Shown: in pieces, positions 1,913-32,042 of the stretch
How positions within the stretch are numbered: position 1 is the stretch's first letter
Layout of the letters: every line of letters begins with the position of its first letter
IMG/VR virus record: IMGVR_UViG_3300044260_000039
Coordinates: 1-32,042 of that record
Direction: 5' to 3' (one strand)
From: a virus
Taxonomy: Duplodnaviria > Caudoviricetes
Length of the DNA: 32,042 bases
The notes under the pieces: generated by a model
Told to the model about the DNA's origin: nothing
The model's input: the letters and a program-made list of their open reading frames with translations, nothing else
Databases searched by the model: none
Made by a program: the position numbers and the translations under genes

Positions 1913-2304
1913 AACTGAAAATTGACGGCAAGGAATACGACATTGAGGCAGCGATGGAACGGCCCACGCTGTTCCTGATCCGTGAAATGAAGATCCGCAC
2001 CGGCTACGGGATCAAGTCGCTCATGGACGCCGGAAAGCAGTTCAAGGGCAAGGCAACCGAGGAAATCCTCGACGATCCCGATCTGCTCGGCGCGTTTATC
2101 GCGATGATCTGGCTCGCCAGGCGCAGCGCGGGCGAACAACTCACGTTTGAACAGGCCGGCTCCTTTGATCTGGAATCGGCCGAGTTCGTCAACGACGCGC
2201 CCGAGCTCCCGGCCCCTGGCGATGATCTCCCAAAAGCTCCGGCGACGGATTCCGCACCGGCAGACGGCCGGCACGTGCAGCCCGTACCCGGATTGAGCAT
2301 GTAG
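1909..2304 (+). CDS. tail assembly chaperone (gpG, short form)
   Basis: Just before the tape measure gene; IWLARR..GE motif; slippery C CCA AAA at 2229-2235. Confidence 0.85.
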   Translation: MKLKIDGKEYDIEAAMERPTLFLIREMKIRTGYGIKSLMDAGKQFKGKATEEILDDPDLLGAFIAMIWLARRSAGEQLTFEQAGSFDLESAEFVNDAPELPAPGDDLPKAPATDSAPADGRHVQPVPGLSM

Positions 2305-2459
2305 ACGATATCGATATCTCGGTCTTTGAAAACATCGTTTTCATTTCCGAGCACTGGCCAGGAATCAACCCGGCCACGGTCTGGGGCATTACCTACGATT
2401 TCTGGCTGCTCTACCTCCACGCCGCCGAGCAGCGGCGCCAACAACTGAAAGAAGGCTAG
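1909..2459 (+). CDS. tail assembly chaperone (gpGT, -1 frameshift product)
   Basis: After CCCAAAA (2229-2235) the -1 frame is open to TAG 2457-2459 and encodes ...SEHWPGINPATVWGITYDFWLLYLHAAEQRRQQLKEG, ending 3 nt before the tape measure start. Confidence 0.85.
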
Positions 2460-2462
2460 GCC

Positions 2463-5306
2463 GTGGCTGCCTCGATGTTCTTTGACATTTTCGGACGCGA
2501 CAAGGGCGTCACGGCGATGTTCGACAAGGTCGCCGAGAAGGCGCACGGCCTCGGCCCGGTGTTCGAGGGCGCCGGGGCCCTGGTGGGCAAGCTCGCGCTG
2601 CCGCTCGCCGCGCTCGGCGTCGGCGTGGGGATGAAAAAATTCATCGATTCCTCGGTCGAATCGTTTGAAACCCTCGCCGGGTCCGTGTCCGGCCTGAAAC
2701 GGGTCATGGGCGGCACCACCGAATCAGTGTCGGGGATGCGCGGCGCGATGCAGCTCGCCGGCGTGAACGTCGACGACATTTCCGGGCTGATGACGAAATT
2801 CGCGAAAAACCTCGGCGGCGCCGACGCCTCGGCGGCAGCCTCGCAGAAAATGCTGCAGACGCTGGGGTTCAACTACCGCGACGCGCACGGCGCAATGCTC
2901 CCCATGACGGACATCCTGCCCAAGCTCGCAGACCGGTTTAAGTCCATGCCGGACGGCGTCGATAAAACGGCGCTCGCGATGAGTATTTTCGGCAAGCAGG
3001 GCGCCGCGATGCTCCCATTCTTGAATAAGGGCAGCGCGGGGATCGCCGATCTCGAGGCTCACGCTAAAAAAATGGGCCTCACCCTCGATGACGTCTCAAT
3101 TAAGATCATGGCCGCCGGCAAGGTATCCGCGCGGGATTTCTCTAGCAGCATCCAGGGCATGAAAGTCCAGCTAGGCCAGGATCTCGCGCCGGTCATCGAA
3201 TCAGTGGAGAACCTCTCGCGCGCCGCGCTCACGCCGCTGATCGCCGGCGCGACGAAACTCTTTGAAGCCGGCCGCGGCCCGGCAATGAAATTTGCCTCCG
3301 CGATCGAATCGACGTCCGAGCACCTGCACGAAACCCTCGGCAAGCTCGCCGAACCGGCCGTGAAACTCGCGAAGGACTTTCACGACGGATTCAGCCACGG
3401 CGTCGACGCGATCGGTTCCAACCAGACCGCGCTCGCGCACTGGGGCGCCGCGGCGTTCGGTATGTTCGCCGCGTCCAAGGAAACCGCTCACCAATTTTTC
3501 GAGGGCGTGAAGGCCGGTAACGCGTTCTCCGGCCCCTCGCTCGCCGGCACGTTCGGCGCGGCCGGAAATCAGGTACATCACGCTTTCACCGAGGCGGCCG
3601 GCGGCAGCCGGGCATTTTTCGCCGCGTTCAAGGCCGGCGGCGACGATATCACCTCGAGCGGATTCGCCGGGGTGCTCGAGGGGATGGGACTAAAGGCGCG
3701 GCACGGATTCGACGCCGCGCACGAGGGCGCCCGCGTGCTCTTTGACGCGATCCGCACCGGATCCAACACCGCTACCGGCGGCCTCGACGGCATGGCGGCC
3801 ACGGCCGGCAACTCGCTGCACAAGGCATTCGGCGACGCCCGCGCCGCTGCCGGGACGTTCTTCGACGGGCTGAAAACGGGGGCGAATGATTCCGGGCAGG
3901 GGGGGATCGTCGGGCTCGCCGGCTCGCTCGGCAACAGCCTGCATGGCCTGTTCGAGAAGATCGGGCCGATGCTCCCGCAGATCCTGCAGCTCGCGTCGTC
4001 ATTTTCTCCGCTCTCGCTGGTGTTCCACGCGCTCGAGCCGGTCCTGCCGCAGCTGGTGGGGATGCTCGGGCAGCTCGCGGCGACGCTCGCCGGCGCGCTC
4101 GGCCAGGCGCTCTCGACGATCATGCCGGCCCTGCAGGGCCTCGCCGCTGCCCTGGTCGGCGCGCTCGGCCAGGCGATCCAAACGATTCTGCCGACGCTAA
4201 TCTCGCTTCTGCCGGTCGTCGTGCAGGCATTTATGGGCCTGGTGCCGGTCGCAACGCAGATCATCGCCGCCGTGCTGCCGCTGGTCGCCCAGCTGCTCCC
4301 GCCACTGATCGGGCTCTTTACCAAACTCGTGCCGGTCGTCCTGCAGCTGGTCCAAACCGTGCTGCCGCCGATCGCGAAAATCGTCATGGTGATCATCGCC
4401 GCGATTGTTCCGCTGGTGCAGCTGATCGCCGCGCTGCTGATCCCGATCATCACCGCGCTAATGCCGGTGATCACGACGGTCTTTAACGCGATCGCGGGCA
4501 TCATCCTGGCGATCATGCCGATCATTCAAGGCGTGATTGAGGTCGTCCTCGGGCTGATCTCCGGGAACTGGTCGATGGTCTGGCAGGGCATCGTCGATAT
4601 CTTTACCGGGATCTGGCAGACGATCGTCGCGGTCGTCTCCGGCGTGCTCTCGGTGCTCGGTTCGGTGATCGGCGCCGGGCTGAATTTGATAGGCGGCCTG
4701 GTGGGGGGGATCCTCGGCGGGATCGGCTCATTTTTTGCCGACACATGGAACAACATTATCGGCGGTGTGTCCGGATTTATCGGGCAACTGCTCGGTTTTT
4801 TCTCCGGCCTGCCGGGGCAGATTATGGGGTTCCTCGCCGGCGCCGGCACGTGGCTCTATGACGCCGGAAAAAACATAATCGACGGGCTGATCAACGGCGT
4901 GAAGTCGATGATCGGCGCGATCGGTAACGCGATCCTCTCACTCGTGCCGGGCCCGATCGTCGGCGTGTTCAAAGACGCGCTAGGGATTCATTCGCCGTCG
5001 CTGGTGTTCCACGGATTCGGCGAAAACATCGGGCAGGGCCTGATCAACGGCGTCGGGGCGATGGTTCCGAAGATCGACGCGCGAATGTCGTCCCTGGTCA
5101 AGCCGCTCGACGTGCCGGGGATCGTCGCCGGCGCCGCCGGCGGCAGCGGATCCGCCGGCGCCGGGGCGCGGGTCAACACGGCCGGCCCTGCCCTGCACAT
5201 TGAAAACATTAACGTCAACGAGGCACAGCAGGGGGGGTGGCAGCACGTGGGAAACAGCATTCTTAACGCCGTCCAGGTCAAGGCGCCGCAGGTATTCGCG
5301 CTGTGA
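2463..5306 (+). CDS. tape measure protein
   Basis: 947 aa, Ala/Gly-rich; ALAMSIFGKQGAAMLPFL and LGIHSPSLVF..FGENIGQGLING motifs; amphipathic Trp/Phe repeats. Confidence 0.95.
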   Translation: MAASMFFDIFGRDKGVTAMFDKVAEKAHGLGPVFEGAGALVGKLALPLAALGVGVGMKKFIDSSVESFETLAGSVSGLKRVMGGTTESVSGMRGAMQLAGVNVDDISGLMTKFAKNLGGADASAAASQKMLQTLGFNYRDAHGAMLPMTDILPKLADRFKSMPDGVDKTALAMSIFGKQGAAMLPFLNKGSAGIADLEAHAKKMGLTLDDVSIKIMAAGKVSARDFSSSIQGMKVQLGQDLAPVIESVENLSRAALTPLIAGATKLFEAGRGPAMKFASAIESTSEHLHETLGKLAEPAVKLAKDFHDGFSHGVDAIGSNQTALAHWGAAAFGMFAASKETAHQFFEGVKAGNAFSGPSLAGTFGAAGNQVHHAFTEAAGGSRAFFAAFKAGGDDITSSGFAGVLEGMGLKARHGFDAAHEGARVLFDAIRTGSNTATGGLDGMAATAGNSLHKAFGDARAAAGTFFDGLKTGANDSGQGGIVGLAGSLGNSLHGLFEKIGPMLPQILQLASSFSPLSLVFHALEPVLPQLVGMLGQLAATLAGALGQALSTIMPALQGLAAALVGALGQAIQTILPTLISLLPVVVQAFMGLVPVATQIIAAVLPLVAQLLPPLIGLFTKLVPVVLQLVQTVLPPIAKIVMVIIAAIVPLVQLIAALLIPIITALMPVITTVFNAIAGIILAIMPIIQGVIEVVLGLISGNWSMVWQGIVDIFTGIWQTIVAVVSGVLSVLGSVIGAGLNLIGGLVGGILGGIGSFFADTWNNIIGGVSGFIGQLLGFFSGLPGQIMGFLAGAGTWLYDAGKNIIDGLINGVKSMIGAIGNAILSLVPGPIVGVFKDALGIHSPSLVFHGFGENIGQGLINGVGAMVPKIDARMSSLVKPLDVPGIVAGAAGGSGSAGAGARVNTAGPALHIENINVNEAQQGGWQHVGNSILNAVQVKAPQVFAL

Positions 5307-11169: not shown

Positions 11170-11781
11170 ATGTTGTTCGTCCACATCGAACCGGCGCAGC
11201 TGCTGCAGCTGCTCGCATCGACAATTTTTCCGCTATTGATCGGGCTGATCACTACCCGCGACACGCACCCGGCCCGCCGGGCGATCCTGCTCGCGGCGCT
11301 CTCAGTCTCGACGTCGCTCGCCGCACAGCTGGCGGTCGCGCTGCAGTCGGGCAAGCCGTACGATCTGATCGCCGCGCTGCTCGCGGCCCTGGTGTCATTC
11401 CTGGTCGCGGTCGGTATGCACTTTGGGCTCTGGAATCCTACCGGCGCCGCTGCAGTTGTGCAGAGCCTCGGATCCTCCGCTGATCACCCGCTGCCGGCCG
11501 CTCTGCCGGCCTCACAGCCCGCAGCCGCTCCCGCGGCCCGCGTGACGCTCCCAACGGCCGCAGCAGCTCCCGCAGCGATCCCCGGCACCGTGTTACCGGC
11601 AGCACCGGCGCCGGCTGTGACAGTCGCCGCGGGCCCGGCAGTGCCGGAACTGTTCGCACCGGTCGACACACCTTACTTTCAGCCCGCAGCGATCCCCGGC
11701 ACGGTGCTGCCGGCTGCTGCAGCTGCTCCGGTGATTCACGATCCGGCCGAGACGTTCGTCGATCCGGCACGGCCGAGCTAA
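11170..11781 (+). CDS. holin with Pro/Ala-rich C-terminal tail
   Basis: Three hydrophobic helices, FPLLIGLIT and HFGLWNPTG motifs; duplicated PAAIPGTVLPAA; directly after endolysin. Confidence 0.75.
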   Translation: MLFVHIEPAQLLQLLASTIFPLLIGLITTRDTHPARRAILLAALSVSTSLAAQLAVALQSGKPYDLIAALLAALVSFLVAVGMHFGLWNPTGAAAVVQSLGSSADHPLPAALPASQPAAAPAARVTLPTAAAAPAAIPGTVLPAAPAPAVTVAAGPAVPELFAPVDTPYFQPAAIPGTVLPAAAAAPVIHDPAETFVDPARPS

Positions 11782-11807
11782 AACAGCCCGGCCCGCTACT
11801 CGCCGGC

Positions 11808-11836
11808 TGGCATCTATCGCGGCCGGCGCGTAGTGT
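11808..11836 (+). promoter_or_regulatory. putative SigA-type promoter with operator-like site
   Basis: TGGCAT-N17-TAGTGT; ATCGCG-GCCGG-CGCGTA (11816-11832) overlaps the -10 in the same register as at three other promoters. Confidence 0.45.
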
Positions 11837-11842
11837 TGCATC

Positions 11843-11953
11843 TCGAGATTACCGATGACCGGATACACGCCGGTTATTTGTGGCTTGCGGCGGTGTGAAA
11901 CGCTGCAGGCTGGCGGGCCCGGATCCTTATGGATCCGGGCCCGCTGTTTTTTT
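11843..11953 (+). ncRNA. putative ~110-nt small RNA (two hairpins plus terminator)
   Basis: Hairpins 11855-11877 and 11884-11909 with G-U pairs on + and complementary loops; bounded by promoter and T7 terminator. Confidence 0.45.
11911..11953 (+). terminator. intrinsic terminator
   Basis: GCGGGCCCGGATCC-TTAT-GGATCCGGGCCCGC 14-bp stem followed by TG and T7. Confidence 0.9.
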
Positions 11954-11954
11954 G

Positions 11955-12609
11955 CCCTGGTGAGACTCCCGCGCGCTGGTGAGACTTGAGCAATCTCGCT
12001 ACCGCATTTCGTTCTCTGGTTGTCCTCGAGCTGCCGCCGGCTGCTCTTGTCTCACCCTGCCGCCGGGCTGCCTGGCTCGGCTGCTCTAGCAGCCGTTTTC
12101 TTTTGTCTCGGCCCTTGTTTTTAGCTGACCACGGAGGGAGATGGGAGGGATGAGGGCAGGAGTCTGCCTGATCTGAAATCAGGAACAGACTCACTACTTG
12201 TAACCACGTCGGTCGACGGTCGGTTATCGGTTGGGCAGCACTGGGGCTGCTGATCTGCACGGGCTTATTACAAGTACCCGCAACGGCGGCATATGTCTTG
12301 ATCTCTGGCGGCCCGGCTAGGCATGGCTGTAACTGCTGGCGTCTCTTCGATTCCGGGGCTCGCGCTCTCCGGTGAAACAGTCTGGATCAAGACTCGACAA
12401 TAGAACCGGCTCTAACCCGGATCGGCTGCTCTCGCGGCCTGGTCTTTGGTGTTTATCCTGCCGTAGCGGGAAACGTGGCTCTGGACACTTACCACGGTCC
12501 TAGCATCCGTTGGAGCGGTTTGCTAGGCTTTCTGTATTCGCAAAGAATGATTTTCAAGATATCCCCCTGGTTGGAGCCGGGGGGATATCGCCGTTTTACG
12601 GGCGTGTTC
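11955..12609 (-). ncRNA. putative long structured non-coding RNA / RNA-based origin region (3' end uncertain)
   Basis: No credible ORF; dedicated leftward promoter at 12616-12645; many hairpins and 9-bp long-range inverted repeats. Confidence 0.5.
12078..12108 (+). terminator. intrinsic terminator-like hairpin inside the non-coding locus
   Basis: CGGCTGC-TCTA-GCAGCCG followed by TTTTCTTTTGT. Confidence 0.6.
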
Positions 12610-12615
12610 AAAAAG

Positions 12616-12645
12616 AATCTACACGCGAAACGCGTACATACGCAA
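12616..12645 (-). promoter_or_regulatory. leftward SigA-type promoter with 17-bp operator
   Basis: On - strand TTGCGT-N18-TAGATT, hexamers identical to promoter 13651-13680; operator TACACG-CGAAA-CGCGTA at 12620-12636. Confidence 0.75.
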
Positions 12646-12646
12646 A

Positions 12647-12681
12647 CAGCGGGCCGGCGTGTTGTCCACGCCGGCCCGCTG
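12647..12681 (-). terminator. terminator after the DUF4236-like gene
   Basis: Perfect 15-bp stem CAGCGGGCCGGCGTG/CACGCCGGCCCGCTG, followed by TTTG on -. Confidence 0.7.
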
Positions 12682-12697
12682 CCGTTGTTCCGGGGCC

Positions 12698-12904
12698 CTA
12701 CTCAAACAGATTCGGCCGCTTACGCCGGCCGCTGCTGCCGCTGCCGAGGCGCCAGGACAGCCCAGGAGCGAGCCGAACCGTCACCCGGCCGCGACTGTTC
12801 ACGGTCACCGGGCCCACACGCTTAGAAACGCTCACACCGCGCTTAGACACGTTCAACGCCGCGCCGTTGCCAAGCTGCACACGCTTACGAAAGATCCAGC
12901 CCAT
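12698..12904 (-). CDS. DUF4236-like small basic protein (68 aa)
   Basis: MGWIFRKRVQLGNGAALNVSKRGVSVS...GLSWR fits the DUF4236 pattern; AGGGAG RBS before ATG 12904. Confidence 0.75.
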   Translation of the reverse strand: MGWIFRKRVQLGNGAALNVSKRGVSVSKRVGPVTVNSRGRVTVRLAPGLSWRLGSGSSGRRKRPNLFE

Positions 12905-13102
12905 AATTTCCAGCTCCCTAAAAGTTGTCTGACGGACGCTCTGCCGCGAGATCGCGGGCAGTCTCGATACAGCTGTTCCATGCCTCGACGTCAATCACGC
13001 CTGATTCGTCGATCGTGTACTGCAGCGCGCCGAGGAAATACGGCCACGAGTCGCGCGTGACGCCGTTCTCAGACGCCCGCAGCGGCCCGCGCTCGCCGGC
13101 GC

Positions 13103-13606
13103 TCACTGCTCGGCCAGGCACGCGGGGCAGGTTGCCTGCCGGCGCATCGTCGTCATGCTGCCGCGGGCGCCGCATACGCCGGCGTAGGGCTGATTCCCGG
13201 CGTTCCCGACGTTCCCGGCAAGGTGAGTAATGCCGGCGGCCTCGCGCTCGGCCTCGCGCTCGGCTGAGAGCTTAGCGATTTCGGCGCTCTCGGCCTCGAG
13301 TACGGCCAGCACGGCGGCCGGATCCTCGGCGGCCGGATCCTCGGCTGCCGGCTCACCAGCGGCGGGCGCCTCGGCCTCGGCGGGCTCGTATTCCCACGCC
13401 GCGCCGTCCGCGGTCGCTACTCGGCGGCCTACGAGCTTGCAGTCGGCGGCCGCGATCCGGCGGTAGGCGCCGAATACTTTGCCGTTTTTCCAGCCGCTTA
13501 CGCCGATCGTTTCGCTGCCGCGGTCCGCGTCGTGCTGGAATCCGACGATATAGGTTTTGCCGGTCTTGTATTCGACTACATCATTGCGGCTGAAAGAGTG
13601 GGTCAT
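13103..13606 (-). CDS. hypothetical protein (beta-rich N-terminus, acidic linker, C-terminal H/C..CxxC zinc-binding-like motif)
   Basis: GAGG RBS before ATG 13606; own promoter at 13651-13680; THL...VCG...TCPAC. Confidence 0.7.
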   Translation of the reverse strand: MTHSFSRNDVVEYKTGKTYIVGFQHDADRGSETIGVSGWKNGKVFGAYRRIAAADCKLVGRRVATADGAAWEYEPAEAEAPAAGEPAAEDPAAEDPAAVLAVLEAESAEIAKLSAEREAEREAAGITHLAGNVGNAGNQPYAGVCGARGSMTTMRRQATCPACLAEQ

Positions 13607-13650
13607 TTTGGGGCCTCGGTTCGTCTCGCTGGATTGATCTAACAACACAC

Positions 13651-13690
13651 AATCTACGCGCCACGCGCGTATAAACGCAAGCAGCGAGTA
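13651..13690 (-). promoter_or_regulatory. leftward promoter with tandem operator sites
   Basis: TTGCGT-N18-TAGATT; perfect-armed TACGCG-CCACG-CGCGTA (13655-13671) and degenerate AACGCA-AGCAG-CGAGTA (13674-13690). Confidence 0.75.
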
Positions 13691-13713
13691 AAACGTGTCG
13701 CGTTGCGGGTACG

Positions 13714-13746
13714 AAAACGGCCGCCGGCGGGCTGCCGGCGGCCGTT
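13714..13746 (-). terminator. terminator downstream of the repressor gene
   Basis: AACGGCCGCCGGC-GGGCT-GCCGGCGGCCGTT stem running into TTTT on -. Confidence 0.7.
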
Positions 13747-13752
13747 GTAGTG

Positions 13753-14205
13753 CTAGGCGATCTGCTGCCGCGGGGATCCGGGCCAGAGCGAATGTTCGTA
13801 GCGGATCGGCGCCGGGTCCAGGTACTGCAGCTGGGGCGGCCCTGACGGCGCCGGCGGCAGCGTGCCACTGCCTGGCTGCTGCCGCTGCTGCTGCTGCTGC
13901 TGATCGGCGGTCTCTATGCGGGAGATAACGCCGGTGATCGTTGACTCGCCGCTCGCGTCCTCGAGGCCGAGCAGGTAAGTAATCCGGATCCCGGTCGCGG
14001 ATTCGAGCCGTTCGAGTTCGTCAAGCTCCCACGCGGCCGAGCCGGTGTAGCGGCGCGAAAACGAGCCTTGGGTCATGCCGATCGCCGCGGCTACTTCGGT
14101 TCCCTTCAATTGGAGTTCACCCATGCGGCCACGTAGGCGGCGGGCGACTGCTTGGGACAGGGTTTCAAGTTCGCCGTTATGGCCGGCTGCCGGTGGAGTC
14201 GTCAT
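13753..14205 (-). CDS. immunity repressor (XRE-family HTH, cI-like), 150 aa
   Basis: HTH LKGTEVAAAIGMTQGSFSRRYTG..WELDELERL; divergent from the cro-like gene; ATG 14205 lies 6 nt after a -10 element. Confidence 0.8.
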   Translation of the reverse strand: MTTPPAAGHNGELETLSQAVARRLRGRMGELQLKGTEVAAAIGMTQGSFSRRYTGSAAWELDELERLESATGIRITYLLGLEDASGESTITGVISRIETADQQQQQQRQQPGSGTLPPAPSGPPQLQYLDPAPIRYEHSLWPGSPRQQIA

Positions 14206-14211
14206 TTCCCG

Positions 14212-14240
14212 AGCGTATACACGCATTCCGCGTAAAACAA
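14212..14240 (-). promoter_or_regulatory. repressor promoter (leaderless) whose spacer is the operator
   Basis: TTGTTT-[TACGCGGAATGCGTGTA]-TACGCT-CGGGAA-ATG on -. Confidence 0.7.
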
Positions 14241-14399
14241 GCAGTGAGCTATAGCACCCGTACCTGTATGCAAGATGTGAGTATTACGCCGAGTAGAAAC
14301 CAAGTAATCGAGTACCTAGGCGGCCCCAAAACTGAGTACACGCGTAGCTATACCGTACGGTATAGAAAAAACGCGACACGCGGGAAACTACGCACATAA

Positions 14400-14429
14400 T
14401 TCGTTCCTCACTCGATTAGCGCGTATTGT
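14400..14429 (+). promoter_or_regulatory. early lytic (cro) promoter with operator
   Basis: TTCGTT-N18-TATTGT, 7 nt before ATG 14437; CACTCG-ATTAG-CGCGTA at 14409-14425. Confidence 0.6.
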
Positions 14430-14436
14430 CTCGGCT

Positions 14437-14673
14437 ATGAGAAAAACACCCGCTGCAGTAGCTCAGCGCGTAAAGGAAGAAGCAGCGCGGCAGCGGATCC
14501 CGCAGGCCGCGCTCGCCGAGAGGATCGGCGTCACGCAACAGAACGTCTCCCGCCGGCTCGCCGGCACGGCGCCGATCACCGTAGTAGAGGCCGAGCTGTT
14601 CGCCGACGCGCTCGGCGTCTCGATCGCCTGGCTGTTCGGCGAAACCGACACACCCGCGCCGGCGCCGGTCTAA
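14437..14673 (+). CDS. Cro-like XRE HTH regulator
   Basis: IPQAALAERIGVTQQNVSRRLAG..ITVVEAELFADALGVSIAWL; first rightward early gene. Confidence 0.85.
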   Translation: MRKTPAAVAQRVKEEAARQRIPQAALAERIGVTQQNVSRRLAGTAPITVVEAELFADALGVSIAWLFGETDTPAPAPV

Positions 14674-14710
14674 GACAAAAGAAAACCGCCCGGCACGCGC
14701 CGGGCGGTTT
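14673..14710. terminator. hairpin after cro, possibly bidirectional, with the better U-tract on -
   Basis: AAACCGCCCGGC-ACGC-GCCGGGCGGTTT; on - followed by TCTTTTGTCT. Confidence 0.65.
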
Positions 14711-14771
14711 CCATCGCCGGGCTCTGCAGGCCGGGCGAACACAACAAACAACAAACCAAAGGATATCAGCC

Positions 14772-15299
14772 ATGCCAGAATCTCAGCTCCCGCGCCGGGC
14801 CTATTTCGCCGCCGAGGACCACGCGCCGCTCGATCCGAACGCATCGCCGGCCAGGATCTCGCAGCAGCAGGTCGCGATCGCGGCCCGAAACACGCTGGCG
14901 CAAAACCTGATCTACAAGGCCGAGCAGATCGCCGCGGCCGTCAAGACGGCCCGCACGTTCGACACAACCGGGCAGATCCCGGCCGCGCTCCCGCACCTGG
15001 CGATCAGCGTCGCCGATCTGGTCAAGGCGCACGAGGCATTCGTCGACGACGTAGCAAGGTCACTTGAGAAGCACGCCCGCCGGGCCCGGATGGAACGCGG
15101 CCTCAACATCGCCGCAGCAGCCGAGACGGCACACCCGGCCGGCGCCGGCCGCGCACTCGATCAGCAGATCCTCACCGAATCGATCACCGCGATCTCGGCA
15201 GCCGCGCACGACGACGCAGCCTCGGCCCTGGCAGCCGTCGACGCCGCCGAGGAAACCGCCGGCGCGCCGTCCGCAGCCAAGCCGGGCCCGCGAGCATGA
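14772..15299 (+). CDS. hypothetical protein
   Basis: AAGGA RBS; ATGA overlap with next gene. Confidence 0.75.
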   Translation: MPESQLPRRAYFAAEDHAPLDPNASPARISQQQVAIAARNTLAQNLIYKAEQIAAAVKTARTFDTTGQIPAALPHLAISVADLVKAHEAFVDDVARSLEKHARRARMERGLNIAAAAETAHPAGAGRALDQQILTESITAISAAAHDDAASALAAVDAAEETAGAPSAAKPGPRA

Positions 15300-15748
15300 A
15301 AGACAAGACACGCGCCGAGGTATTCCTGCAGCCCAAGGGCAGCCGGCCGCTGCAGCGGACAGCAATCGTTTTCTACGCGAACCGCGCCGAGCTGAAAAAG
15401 CAGCTCGAGGCCTACGCCGCGACGGTCTGGATCAACACCCGCCGGATCGACGTAGACACCGACTCGCTCGAGATCCTGGTCGACGGCGTACCCGTCGCGA
15501 ACTACCGGCTCCACATCCCCGGCACACCCGCACACGCCGAACCGGCCCAAGTCGTCACAAAAACACGCCGGCCCACAACCCGCGCCCGGCACACCCTGGC
15601 ACAGATCGCCGTGATCATCGCCGGGCTGCTGCTCACACTCGCCGCCGGCCCACACCTCAACGGCGCCTATCTCGCCGGCGCCGCGCTCGCCGGATTCGGG
15701 ATCTACCGGCTCAGCCTCGCCGTGCAGCGTCGCGAGGCGGCACTGTGA
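15296..15748 (+). CDS. hypothetical membrane protein (two C-terminal TM helices)
   Basis: Start/stop overlaps on both sides; hydrophobic C-terminus. Confidence 0.7.
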   Translation: MKDKTRAEVFLQPKGSRPLQRTAIVFYANRAELKKQLEAYAATVWINTRRIDVDTDSLEILVDGVPVANYRLHIPGTPAHAEPAQVVTKTRRPTTRARHTLAQIAVIIAGLLLTLAAGPHLNGAYLAGAALAGFGIYRLSLAVQRREAAL

Positions 15749-16770
15749 CGGCCGCGAGGATCAAGGCGCTTGACCTGTTCGCGGGCACCGGCTGGGGCGT
15801 CGCGTGCCGGCGCCTCGGCATCAAGGAATCAGGCGTAGAAATCATGCCTGAAGCCGTGGCAACCCGCACGGCCAACGGCATGGAAACGATCTATCGCGAC
15901 GTGTGGGACGGTCTGCAGCTCACCGCCGAACAGCACCGCGAACAGTACGGCTCTTACGGGCTGCTGATCGCCTCCCCGCCGTGCCAGACATTCAGCCTGG
16001 CGGGCAAGGGCGCCGGCCGCGCCGCGCTCGATGAAGTCCTCGAGGCGATCGAATTGCACGCGTACAAAGACGCCGACGCGCTGCTGCAGTTCGGCGAAAA
16101 GCACGATCCGCGTACGGCGCTGGTGCTCACGCCGCTGGCTTACGTCTGGCGGGACCGGCCGCGGATCGTCGCGCTCGAGCAGGTGCCTACCGTCCTGCCG
16201 GTCTGGGAAGCGTGCGCCGAGGTCATGCGCGAATGGGGATACGAAGTCGAAACGGCCGTGCTCAACGCCGAACAGTACGGCGTGCCGCAGACACGCAAAC
16301 GGGCGATCCTGGTCGCACGCCGCGGCGGGCCCGTAGCACTCCCGACGCCGACACACTCCCGCTACTACTCCCGCACACCCGACAAGCTCGATCCCGGCGT
16401 AAAAAAATGGGTAAGCATGGCCGAAGCGCTCGGCTGGGGCGCTAAAGATCAGCCGTCGCACACGATCACCGGCGGCGTGCACGGCCCTACTGATCGATGG
16501 GCGTCCGGCGGGAATAGCGTCCGCAAAGCACTAGACGCGAAGATCGGCGGCCCGGCATGGATCGACAAGCCGGCATGGGCCGGCTCAACGGAACGGCTCG
16601 CCACCGAGGAAGCCGCGGCGCTGCAGTCCTCCCCGTCAGAACCGCCGTTCGTGTGGTGTGGGACGAAAACGAAGCAGTTTCTGCAGATCGGTAACGCGGT
16701 CCCGCCGTTGCTCGCCGAGCATATCCTCGCGGCCCTGGTCGGGATCCCGGTAAGCGGGGCGGCCCAATGA
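15745..16770 (+). CDS. DNA (cytosine-5)-methyltransferase, orphan
   Basis: Motifs DLFAGTG (I), SPPCQTFS (IV), LEQV (VI), PQTRKR (VIII), QIGNAV (X); GTG at 15745 overlaps the upstream stop. Confidence 0.92.
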   Translation: MTAARIKALDLFAGTGWGVACRRLGIKESGVEIMPEAVATRTANGMETIYRDVWDGLQLTAEQHREQYGSYGLLIASPPCQTFSLAGKGAGRAALDEVLEAIELHAYKDADALLQFGEKHDPRTALVLTPLAYVWRDRPRIVALEQVPTVLPVWEACAEVMREWGYEVETAVLNAEQYGVPQTRKRAILVARRGGPVALPTPTHSRYYSRTPDKLDPGVKKWVSMAEALGWGAKDQPSHTITGGVHGPTDRWASGGNSVRKALDAKIGGPAWIDKPAWAGSTERLATEEAAALQSSPSEPPFVWCGTKTKQFLQIGNAVPPLLAEHILAALVGIPVSGAAQ

Positions 16771-18455: not shown

Positions 18456-19676
18456 ATGCCGTGGCTCAGGATTGGCGATACCGCAGCGAATCACCCGATC
18501 GCGCTCGCGGTACTCGAGGATCCGGCCGCCGATGATCGGCTGCTCAATGAGGTTTTCGGGTTCGTCGCGCGGTGCGCTCTGCAATCCACAGCGCACCTAA
18601 CCGACTACCTGGTGAGCATGGGAACAGCGATTCAGATCGGCGGGCACTCGCGGGTCTGGACACTGCTCGACGCAGCAGTTGACGCCGGCTACTTTTCGCC
18701 GGCCGAGATGATCGTCGACGGGATCGCACGCAAGGCTTACAAGCTGCTCGACGATCCCGATTTCATCCACATGAGGACCAAGGAAGAAATCGAGTGGGAA
18801 CGGCAACGGAAAACCGATAACTCTAATCCGGCGCTGATCGTGCCGGTTAGGCTCCGCGACGGCGACGCGTGCCGTTATTGCGGTCTGGTCGTCGATTTCC
18901 GGCCGGGGCAGCGTAAGGGCCGTATCGCCGGAACTTACGATCACCGGCAGCCAGGGCATGAGGCAACGATCGAGACGTACGTCGTTTGCTGCAGGGCGTG
19001 CAACGCGTCCCGCGGCGACGACACAAACGCCGACGCCTCGCTGCCGCTGCTGCCGGCGCCGTCGCGGCCGTACTACAGCCCGCACACGATCGAATGGATC
19101 CGAACTAATGATTGGGCCAAGCGAAACGGCATCAAGCCGCCTCGCAAGGGCAAAGCGATCGCGCCGGGCGAACCGGCGCGTAAGAGTGGAGCAACGCCGG
19201 CCAACGGAAGCAGTACCGGGCCGGCGCCGGGGATCAACGGAAGCAGTGACCGGATCCCAACGGGCGAACCTCTGGCAAGTGGAGCAACGCCGGCCAACGG
19301 AAGCAGTACCGGGCCGGCGTCGGGGATCAACGGAAGCAGTGACCGGATCCCAACGGGCGAAACAAACCGCGCAGAAAATCACGAAAACGGGCCGGAAAAT
19401 CAAAACCACCTCGAAAAACACGTAAAAACGAACACAGAAAAAACGCCGTCCGAACCGGAAAAACCGCCTCTGAACAGGCAAAACACCGGATCTGGCAGAA
19501 ATCCGCAGATTCCGCAGAACGGCAGACTGCAAAATCTGGATTCGCCGGGTCGGGTCGGGTCGGGTCGGGTCGGGTCGGTACTGGCAGGGCCCGCGATCTC
19601 CACAGCCACCCACACACAACACACAACAGATCAGCCCGGCCGCTCACGGCCACGCACACGCAGGGGAAACCAATGA
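18456..19676 (+). CDS. putative replication initiator with central HNH-like zinc-finger domain
   Basis: N-terminal MPWLRIGD..HP as in actinophage initiator-like proteins; RDGDACRYCG..YDH..CRACNASR; internal iteron-like repeats; GAAGGAG RBS. Confidence 0.65.
   Translation: MPWLRIGDTAANHPIALAVLEDPAADDRLLNEVFGFVARCALQSTAHLTDYLVSMGTAIQIGGHSRVWTLLDAAVDAGYFSPAEMIVDGIARKAYKLLDDPDFIHMRTKEEIEWERQRKTDNSNPALIVPVRLRDGDACRYCGLVVDFRPGQRKGRIAGTYDHRQPGHEATIETYVVCCRACNASRGDDTNADASLPLLPAPSRPYYSPHTIEWIRTNDWAKRNGIKPPRKGKAIAPGEPARKSGATPANGSSTGPAPGINGSSDRIPTGEPLASGATPANGSSTGPASGINGSSDRIPTGETNRAENHENGPENQNHLEKHVKTNTEKTPSEPEKPPLNRQNTGSGRNPQIPQNGRLQNLDSPGRVGSGRVGSVLAGPAISTATHTQHTTDQPGRSRPRTRRGNQ
19185..19361 (+). 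repeat. two 84-bp direct repeats (93-bp period) containing 4x CAACGGAAGCAGT; candidate lytic origin iterons
   Basis: 13-mers at 19202, 19235, 19295 and 19328, followed by an A-tract-rich segment. Confidence 0.8.
19546..19575 (+). repeat. (CGGGT)6 microsatellite
   Basis: Read directly from the sequence. Confidence 0.95.
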
Positions 19677-31605: not shown

Positions 31606-32042
31606 ATGCTTATTCTCAACATCAGTTCCCAGGGCGAGCTCGACGTTCCGCTGCTGGGAAAGATCGTCGGCATCAACGCCACGATCGAAGTCACCGAATC
31701 CCAGGCGCTCGCGCTGCTCGCACAGCACGGCGTATTCGCTCCGGCCGACGACGAGGCGCAGGAAGTCGCCGATCTCCACGCCCAGGCGCGTGACGCCGGC
31801 CTGCCGGCCCACGATCCGGCCAGCCCGCTGCCGGCTCCCGCTCCCGTTGCGGATCCCGCACCGGTGGACGTGCCGGCCGCTCCCGCGCCCGTAGACGCCG
31901 CGCCGGCCGCTCCTGTTGCGGATCCCGCACCGGTGGACGTGCCGGCCGCTCCCGCGCCCGTAGACGCCGCGCCGGCCGCTCCTGTTGCGGATCCCGCACC
32001 GGTGGACGTGCCGGCCGCTCCCGCGCCCGTAGACGCCGCGCC
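31606..32042 (+). CDS. 5' part of repeat-containing protein (MLILNISSQGELDVPLLGKIV...), continues at 1..320
   Basis: AAGGG RBS, ATG 31606, open to the end of the window, in frame with the 69-bp repeats. Confidence 0.8.
   Translation, partial: MLILNISSQGELDVPLLGKIVGINATIEVTESQALALLAQHGVFAPADDEAQEVADLHAQARDAGLPAHDPASPLPAPAPVADPAPVDVPAAPAPVDAAPAAPVADPAPVDVPAAPAPVDAAPAAPVADPAPVDVPAAPAPVDAA
31847..32042 (+). repeat. 69-bp tandem repeat; last 127 nt duplicate bases 1-127 (circular assembly overlap)
   Basis: Units start at 31847, 31916 and 31985; 31916-32042 equals 1-127. Confidence 0.95.

Follow-up and report, generated by a model that had tools for sequence, protein, structure and literature searches.

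A conserved non-coding element in a siphophage genome without a detectable integrase: a candidate RNA-based replication origin related to plasmid pKPAL3

Origins that work without a Rep protein have been described for cluster A mycobacteriophages and for the Kocuria palustris plasmid pKPAL3, and they are the closest known systems to the locus treated here, a conserved non-coding element at positions 12105–12610 of the siphophage record IMGVR_UViG_3300044260_000039 (32,042 nt, analysed at full length and called the window below). The non-RepA RNA origins of cluster A phages lie in the same slot as this element, are transcribed leftward and replicate without parABS at 0.8–16 copies (Wetzel et al. 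2020, PMC7157519). Plasmid pKPAL3 has no Rep gene (Toda and Itoh 2017, PMC5711781). An ORF-free 1.0-kb fragment of it containing region I (2123–2626) and region II replicates at ~20 copies, fragments lacking region II failed to replicate, and derivatives without a XerD-like gene were unstable (PMC5711781). Its authors suspected a non-theta replication mode and described region I as an untranslated region resembling chromosomal DNA; no RNA is proposed in the available parts of that paper (PMC5711781).

By sequence comparison, the element in the window is homologous to the ORF-free replication region of pKPAL3. It is probably an RNA-based origin, and our favoured reading, which we regard as fairly likely, is an RNA-primed origin that keeps an integrase-less prophage as a multicopy plasmid. 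This reading rests on the homology, a covarying structure, the lack of coding potential, the plasmid-like contexts of related copies and the exchange of the element for integrase genes within phage cluster FO. The parts of the element are the following:

12105–12610, minus strand (presumed strand of the long RNA): conserved non-coding element, candidate RNA-based replication origin, delimited by sequence homology
12133–12160, plus strand: G-rich purine block at the left end, putative RNA-DNA hybrid or priming site
12282–12424, minus strand: covarying structural core, in which a long-range helix of 9 bp closes a multibranch junction, with a 4-bp hairpin that has a conserved 7-nt loop
12499–12527, no strand assigned: hairpin 1, presumed target loop of the long RNA; its loop GTTGGAGC (12509–12516) is the same as that of hairpin 2, and its stem covaries
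12524–12529, plus strand: predicted −10 element (TANNNT) for a short RNA of the plus strand; in all 21 members with this type of loop, it lies 5–8 nt past loop 1
12536–12598, plus strand: predicted inhibitor RNA of ~65 nt with presumed ends, hairpin 2 (12558–12589, loop GTTGGAGC at 12570–12577) being followed by TTTT
12556–12561, minus strand: predicted −10 element of the long RNA, facing the plus-strand promoter; TANNNT lies 6–9 nt past loop 2 in 17 of 20 two-loop members
12601–12607, no strand assigned: conserved GGCGTGT motif at the right edge, found in 17 of 21 members of the loop type
12616–12645, minus strand: putative alternative promoter, a promoter-like site farther upstream whose spacer is palindromic; the window has one further, near-identical site, at 13651–13680, and no others

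Using blastn, the element was found to be 79–83% identical to copies in the Arthrobacter cluster FO phages JanetJ, Aoka and EvenBluerMoon, where it occupies a slot without an integrase, and to match four Arthrobacter phages of cluster FF more weakly. The link to pKPAL3 came via an FF copy: a plasmid search with this copy led to pKPAL3 and to the Arthrobacter plasmid pHiyo8-2, and the window element itself gave no blastn match to plasmids. The homologous segment of pKPAL3 (2123–2710) scores 136 bits, being a member of the model, and shares 51% identity over 488 aligned nt. A profile built from 11 members outside the FO and FF phages detects window 12128–12607 with an E-value of 9e-39, and one built only from seven Kocuria plasmid-type members detects window 12208–12607 (E 3e-18). 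Region I of pKPAL3 is shared along the whole element, including the G-rich block, the covarying core, the twin loops, both −10 candidates and the GGCGTGTC edge, and a Rep gene is missing in both cases. In contrast to pKPAL3, the window has neither region II nor the XerD-like stabilising gene, and its element sits in a 32-kb tailed phage.

By primer mapping, the working pKPAL3 fragment corresponds to 2040–3031 and the 0.6-kb fragment, which was matched by size, to 2040–2642. The cut at 2642 removes hairpin 2, the minus-strand −10 element and the GGCGTGTC motif. Since it thus takes away the right end of the element, and since a homolog of region II (2721–2854) is absent from all 14 element-bearing sequences tested (the window included), the reported need for region II may reflect the loss of the element's own right end.

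The original prediction, which was made from the letters of the sequence, had described ~850 bp of structured, ORF-poor DNA in the slot between the holin and repressor genes. This slot indeed holds ~915 bp without a credible gene; the conserved part is smaller than the 850–900 bp non-coding stretch and covers only ~500 nt. For 11782–12697, neither Pfam nor PHROGs gave a match, every frame is interrupted by 2–6 stops within the core, and none stays open throughout the homologs. A 128-aa minus-strand ORF (11874–12260) was rejected as a hidden protein, its frame being broken in JanetJ and partly matched in L013. The same region folds better than shuffled sequences, with z-scores of −3.0 for the minus strand and −4.3 for the plus strand. 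No Rfam family reached its gathering score in the window, matches in 11700–12800 were at chance level only, and the search of seven homolog loci returned only a tRNA.

The core at 12282–12424 is a real structure. Changes on both sides were observed in 26 of its 33 pairs, those of the 9-bp long-range helix (helix 2) being compensatory at nine of nine, in an alignment of related sequences from which the structure itself was derived. Pairing is maintained in 92% of the cells, compared to 69% in shuffled alignments and 24–41% when the partners were slid. The covariance model R1, of which the window copy is a member, scores 145 bits at the core, its sole strong match in the window. G-U asymmetry and consensus energy (−28.8 for the minus, −31.1 for the plus strand) leave the strand undecided; the long RNA was assigned to the minus strand on three grounds, namely the −10 elements predicted on that strand, the position of the pKPAL3 cut (2642) and the direction of transcription of the cluster A RNA, which is leftward. 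At the left end, the best 28-mer of the purine block contains 21–27 purines in all 29 members, at a distance of 242–371 nt from the core end, a count that was made without a shuffled control.

At the right end, two hairpins lie at a spacing of 57–64 nt, and in 23 of the 29 members their 8-nt loops are identical. The twin loops switch together: they read GTTGGAGC in the window and L014, GTTGGCGC in 20 members and ATTGGCGT in L015. In all five FF-type copies the repeated loop is GTAGCCG, and in L080 it is the reverse complement ACGCCAAT. In an automated test, a shared loop of at least 7 nt was detected in 16 of 29 members, which are related to each other and among which the window was missed, and in 1.3% of 232 shuffled sequences. 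The fold of the predicted inhibitor RNA amounts to −28 kcal/mol and the predicted duplex between loop 2 (plus strand) and loop 1 (minus strand) to −16.6 kcal/mol. The direct-repeat loops flanking face-to-face −10 elements suggest that a short inhibitor RNA makes a kissing contact with a long RNA that serves as primer. Two identical loops would not be needed by a pure cis-antisense pair, which argues for a short plus-strand RNA with loop 2 and a long minus-strand RNA with the complement of loop 1.

For the flanking promoters of the original prediction, candidate motifs were recognised by eye. A consensus promoter scan of 11700–14800 gave a single promoter-like site, at 14373–14400, and did not pick up the −10 element at 12524–12529. 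The two promoter-like sites with palindromic spacers have their palindromes at 12623 and 13655. At the edge corresponding to 12601–12607, GGCGTGTCG is invariant in eight cluster A origins. The GGCGTGTC edge motif of the window and the cluster A origins contains GACAC on the other strand, the motif bound by WhiA, a regulator of cell division in actinobacteria; if it acts as a WhiA site, origin firing might be tied to the host cycle.

A replication scheme can be proposed in which we infer all transcripts and steps, in part by analogy with ColE1. Host RNA polymerase would synthesise an RNA of ~450–500 nt leftwards from a right-end promoter, either that with the −10 element at 12561–12556 or the site at 12645–12616. 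This long RNA would fold into the core, stay hybridised to the DNA at the G-rich block (12133–12160) and prime synthesis by host enzymes. The facing promoter, with its −10 element at 12524–12529, would give rise to a plus-strand RNA of ~65 nt that carries loop 2; as loops 1 and 2 are direct repeats, loop 2 of this RNA would be complementary to loop 1 of the long RNA. Kissing of the two would block primer folding or a persistent RNA-DNA hybrid, thereby determining both copy number and incompatibility. Under the cI-like repressor the lytic genes would stay off, and inheritance would rest on copy number, with neither parABS nor a resolvase, so that lysogeny may be leaky.

RNA I of ColE1 is complementary in cis to the 5′ end of RNA II. 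The likeness of the element to RNA II and RNA I appears to be one of logic only (long pre-primer, short counter-RNA, loop kissing, no Rep, multicopy state, no partition). The inhibitor in the window is instead predicted to match its target via a duplicated loop, and the host phylum differs. Homology to ColE1 had been suspected by eye and was rejected, as no similarity in sequence or structure was found (pairwise z 1.2; no Rfam RNAI match).

The cluster A origins are alike in slot, in size (~0.5–0.6 kb) and in needing no ORF, and the window too has ~600 bp of ORF-free DNA in the integration slot, with no RepA found. The order and orientation of the parts agree as well: a G-rich left end, an ATTACTC loop, a long helix and a 4-bp hairpin with a similar 7-nt loop, followed by a plus-strand −10 element past a hairpin, a short hairpin unit and the GGCGTGTC edge. 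This motif likeness was picked by eye and after the fact. The inner topology differs, the direct repeat of the right-end loops was not seen in cluster A origins, and cluster A systems have an adjacent parABS cassette, whereas none was found in the window. Neither nhmmer nor the covariance model gave a match between the element and cluster A origins. In pairwise alignments, five of seven cluster A origins exceeded all 40 local shuffles, and the profile-profile score (z ~3) stayed below the null maximum. The evidence for homology of the element to cluster A RNA origins is therefore only suggestive. For the RNA-only replicon of the original prediction, kinship with pKPAL3 and with contigs carrying relaxases or resolvases without a detected Rep stood up to the comparison, homology to ColE1 was not detected, and the tie to cluster A stayed at that level.

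The element is spread beyond phages. A pattern scan of GTDB gave 26 matches, 17 of which are true homologs; the other nine were dropped as chance matches, as were two of seven viral ones. Fifteen of the 17 lie on contigs <15 kb, nearly all of them from genomes of Kocuria and the Arthrobacter group. All nine matches in metagenomes carry the core (contigs of 1–15 kb), and a covariance-model search detected the element in 6 of 151 genomes of the family. One homolog lies on a self-closing 4.3-kb contig whose name states a coverage of 1922. Pfam assigned relaxases, resolvases, Xer-like recombinases, HNH and HEPN proteins and an antitoxin among 116 flank ORFs; no Rep was found among these ORFs, which derive from partial flanks of ±3 kb with at most eight ORFs each. 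PLSDB gives no replicon type for pKPAL3 or pHiyo8-2.

In the pHiyo8-2 record (L017, 1–14696), genes and element are repeated at a spacing of ~5.5 kb, and the right end is without the twin-loop pattern; the record is probably a multimer of a ~5.5-kb plasmid. A 9,953-nt Kocuria contig (L044/L045) likewise holds two element copies ~5.8 kb apart. On larger contigs, one end of the copies L039, L078 and L079 is cut short or has diverged (they cover profile positions 45–517, 7–349 and 31–367 of 519), as expected for inactivated plasmid remnants.

A circular record of 9.9 kb from an Arthrobacter genome (L084, 1–9862, identical to L015/L048, G156), whose ends overlap by 77 nt, carries the element together with genes for HNH, terminase, portal, protease and capsid proteins. 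There was no tail match among the 13 ORFs scanned and no tyrosine or serine recombinase; by its gene content, this record looks like a capsid-forming satellite living as a plasmid. In an Arthrobacter chromosome, a 2.7-kb island (L082 9273–12035; G005:C8, ~49273–52035) is bounded on one side by tRNA-Arg(TCT) and on the other by a repeated copy of the 3′ half of this tRNA gene, and contains a small FF-like gene, the full-length element, an FF-type integrase and one further ORF. From these contents, it would be either a minimal integrative replicon or a prophage remnant. A terminase query against the island-bearing genome gave no match and was uninformative.

The absence of integration and partition functions, as claimed by the original prediction, was borne out. 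A six-frame search of the record detected no tyrosine recombinase (PF00589), serine resolvase (PF00239), ParA (PF13614) or ParB (PF02195), and these models were positive in 14, 12, 14 and 10 of 14 control genomes, respectively. No integrase, Rep, partition or protelomerase family was found by Pfam in 125 ORFs (all 114 listed ORFs of at least 100 aa and 11 shorter ones, out of 223 listed) or by PHROGs in 50 likely genes. The divergent cI- and cro-like helix-turn-helix (HTH) genes of the original prediction were likewise recovered (13753–14226 on the minus and 14437–14673 on the plus strand), with an 18-bp palindrome at 14348–14365 as operator candidate. With a complete virion gene set, this repressor pair and no integrase found, the record has a gene combination expected of phage-plasmids.

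The predicted swap of the locus for an integrase was observed within cluster FO. JanetJ, Aoka and EvenBluerMoon share gene order, repressor pair, the HNH-bearing early gene and the element with the window; Maja, also a cluster FO phage, has a tyrosine and a serine integrase in the slot and no element. PF00589 was not detected in any of the six element-bearing FO-like records, namely the window, JanetJ, Aoka, EvenBluerMoon and the incomplete L013 and L014. Published notes on the FO phages with the element call them lytic or unlikely to lysogenise, and the element is unannotated there or covered by spurious ORFs. A literature search, with subscription journals mostly outside its coverage, found nothing tying FO or FF phages or pKPAL3 to an RNA origin.

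Several observations weigh against the plasmid prophage or against details of the proposed origin. Folding does not fix the strand of the RNA, both −10 elements are without consensus −35 boxes, and the minus-strand one is lacking from 3 of 20 members and was not recognised in FF-type copies. The window copy is only ~51% identical to the experimentally tested pKPAL3 copy, the short draft contigs are not proven plasmids and have mostly partial flanks, and no partition or dimer-resolution gene was found that could support a 32-kb replicon. The plaques of Aoka are large and clear, and this phage was described as lytic (PMC10586098); JanetJ, with slightly cloudy plaques, was judged unlikely to lysogenise (PMC11582879), and no FO lysogen was found in the three FO phage papers covered. 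The original prediction had named relatives with both locus and integrase as a sign of a simple deletion derivative, and such a combination does exist in more distant phages: in the FF phages Nandita, Elesar, Zaheer, Popper, Ryan, Gusanita, L011 and L012, the element lies directly beside a tyrosine integrase of ~291 aa. The island L082 also joins the element and an integrase at tRNA-Arg, so the element does not exclude integration.

In an alternative that we consider unlikely, the RNA-primed origin is plasmid-derived but has only a transient role, in initiating or raising replication once the phage has infected a cell or been excised; no stable plasmid prophage exists, and FO-like phages are FF-like integrating phages that have lost their integrase and are lytic or pseudolysogenic. 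The FF locus with the element and the 291-aa integrase is also located next to tRNA-Arg, and FF phages are reported to form lysogens (PMC12821334 and PMC12628072); together with the chromosomal island, this association with a working tRNA-Arg integrase is in line with a transient use, as are the clear plaques of Aoka and the partition genes that were not found. The upstream promoter-like site points the same way, as its palindromic form recurs in a site preceding another gene, as if under repressor control. However, the window copy is 60–62% identical to the plasmid-type Arthrobacter copies L034 and L049 compared to 50% for FF copies, and it has a plasmid-type twin-loop end, which argues against a simple loss of the integrase from an FF ancestor. 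The repressor pair is intact in six of six FO-like records. Moreover, the ORF at 18456–19676 is a probable candidate, on the basis of its distribution, for a separate lytic replication initiator, since it is common to the integrase-bearing Maja, which is without the element. It encodes an HNH-bearing protein with two internal repeats of 84 nt (19185–19268 and 19278–19361), annotated as HNH endonuclease or hypothetical protein in relatives; it has a weak lead (0.87) to a replisome organiser and is the sole replication candidate of the record.

A regulatory RNA pair, for example an antisense-controlled leader or an immunity or addiction module, with pKPAL3 needing it for another purpose than as an origin, is a very improbable explanation. 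The position upstream of the integrase in FF phages and the existence of degenerate chromosomal copies are consistent with it. A loop with UUGGCG, going by the title of Asano et al. 1998, is reportedly an antisense-target motif. Against a regulatory role, the downstream neighbour varies freely (the window has no gene there, FO phages have differing hypothetical genes, FF phages have the integrase, and plasmids have unrelated genes), no conserved ORF lies inside the element, and the 1-kb ORF-free pKPAL3 fragment replicates alone (PMC5711781). That the structure forms in single-stranded DNA (ssDNA), as a hairpin origin for a host protein or RNA polymerase with at most a short RNA primer, is hardly to be expected: covariation cannot separate RNA from ssDNA, both −10 elements lie within hairpin stems and the pKPAL3 authors suspected a non-theta mode (PMC5711781), but no Rep or nickase was found that could make ssDNA, the short terminated unit repeating the other loop is best explained by RNA-RNA contact, and the similarly laid-out cluster A origins are transcribed (PMC7157519).

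Within the RNA-primed plasmid reading, the copies can tentatively be viewed as a family of protein-free RNA replicons of Micrococcaceae that would move among small plasmids and tailed phages as well as a capsid-forming satellite and an integrative island, perhaps with a common ancestry with cluster A. In this possible wider picture, FO-like phages would be kept as multicopy plasmids without Rep, partition or resolvase, the inhibitor would act via a duplicated loop flanking facing promoters and not by full cis overlap, and FF phages would choose between integration and the plasmid state. The kind of system is already known; not found in the literature covered were the family, the structure, the duplicated-loop control, the link from a tested plasmid to 'lytic' phages and the absence of a partition or resolution gene.

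If true, this would explain the Rep-less replication of pKPAL3 and similar small actinobacterial plasmids, which was left open by their describers. RNA-based origins, for which the mechanism is not settled in cluster A phages either, would gain a structure backed by covariation and a model of their control that can be tested. 'Lytic' phages without an integrase would become temperate phage-plasmids, with a bearing on lifestyle prediction and phage choice, and such replicons would be invisible to protein-based typing. An origin of ~0.6 kb with swappable loop specificity would further be a useful vector part for Arthrobacter and Kocuria.

The FF phages also encode a 306-aa 'integrase' that is 38% identical to the XerD-like gene stabilising pKPAL3 (L004 2411–3331 versus L016 3512–4429) and that may, judging by this similarity, be a dimer resolvase. 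A tyrosine recombinase of equal length is encoded by Maja, in which the element is absent.

The record represents a whole or nearly whole siphophage genome of ~32 kb. By PHROGs and Pfam, genes for terminase, portal, protease, capsid, tail, probable endolysin and holin are encoded on the plus strand. The original prediction had the genome closing into a circle. In support of this, the record ends overlap by 127 nt and their joining closes an ORF (31606–320) in frame, resulting in a coherent map; the overlap lies inside a 69-nt tandem repeat, and CheckV gives a completeness of 69%. As the relative JanetJ has cohesive ends (PMC11582879), the circular assembly is, also in view of the CheckV value, no sign of a plasmid state. 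The central part of the JanetJ cos sequence had no match between the HNH and small terminase genes of the record. The gene across the junction (31606–32042 and 1–320), which is located between the head-tail and major tail genes, contains the tandem repeat of 69 nt (23 aa) where the assembly opens, so the repeat count and the exact genome length are uncertain; a related record has 32,067 nt. Among the sequencing runs listed, no RNA run contained the stretch. In the one metagenome run with a full copy, one contig is unbroken across the slot at flat depth, which cannot show copy number or rare junctions and was not used as evidence.

Three small genes, instead of the two originally predicted, were found between the element and the repressor, all on the minus strand and all with homologs in L013 and L014. 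The features around the element are as follows:

11911–11946, plus strand: terminator-like hairpin ending the lysis operon, with a second one at 12078–12095
12698–12904, minus strand: small gene, DUF4236 (Pfam E 9e-10), whose homologs adjoin the element in Aoka, EvenBluerMoon, L013 and L014
12918–13175, minus strand: small gene with ORFs 92% and 66% identical in L014 and L013, respectively; its start is uncertain and it overlaps 13103–13606
13103–13606, minus strand: gene of 167 aa, the C-terminal part of which is kept in L013 and L014; the family search gave no match
13753–14226, minus strand: cI-like HTH repressor candidate (PHROG transcriptional repressor, E 8e-11), 53–55% identical to its counterparts in JanetJ, Aoka and EvenBluerMoon
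14348–14365, no strand assigned: perfect 18-bp palindrome in the divergent intergenic region, operator candidate
14437–14673, plus strand: cro-like HTH gene (Pfam HTH_3, E 1e-9)

No tRNA or tmRNA was detected in the window. Among the early genes, a C5 cytosine methyltransferase is encoded at 15745–16770, which is also present in JanetJ and EvenBluerMoon.

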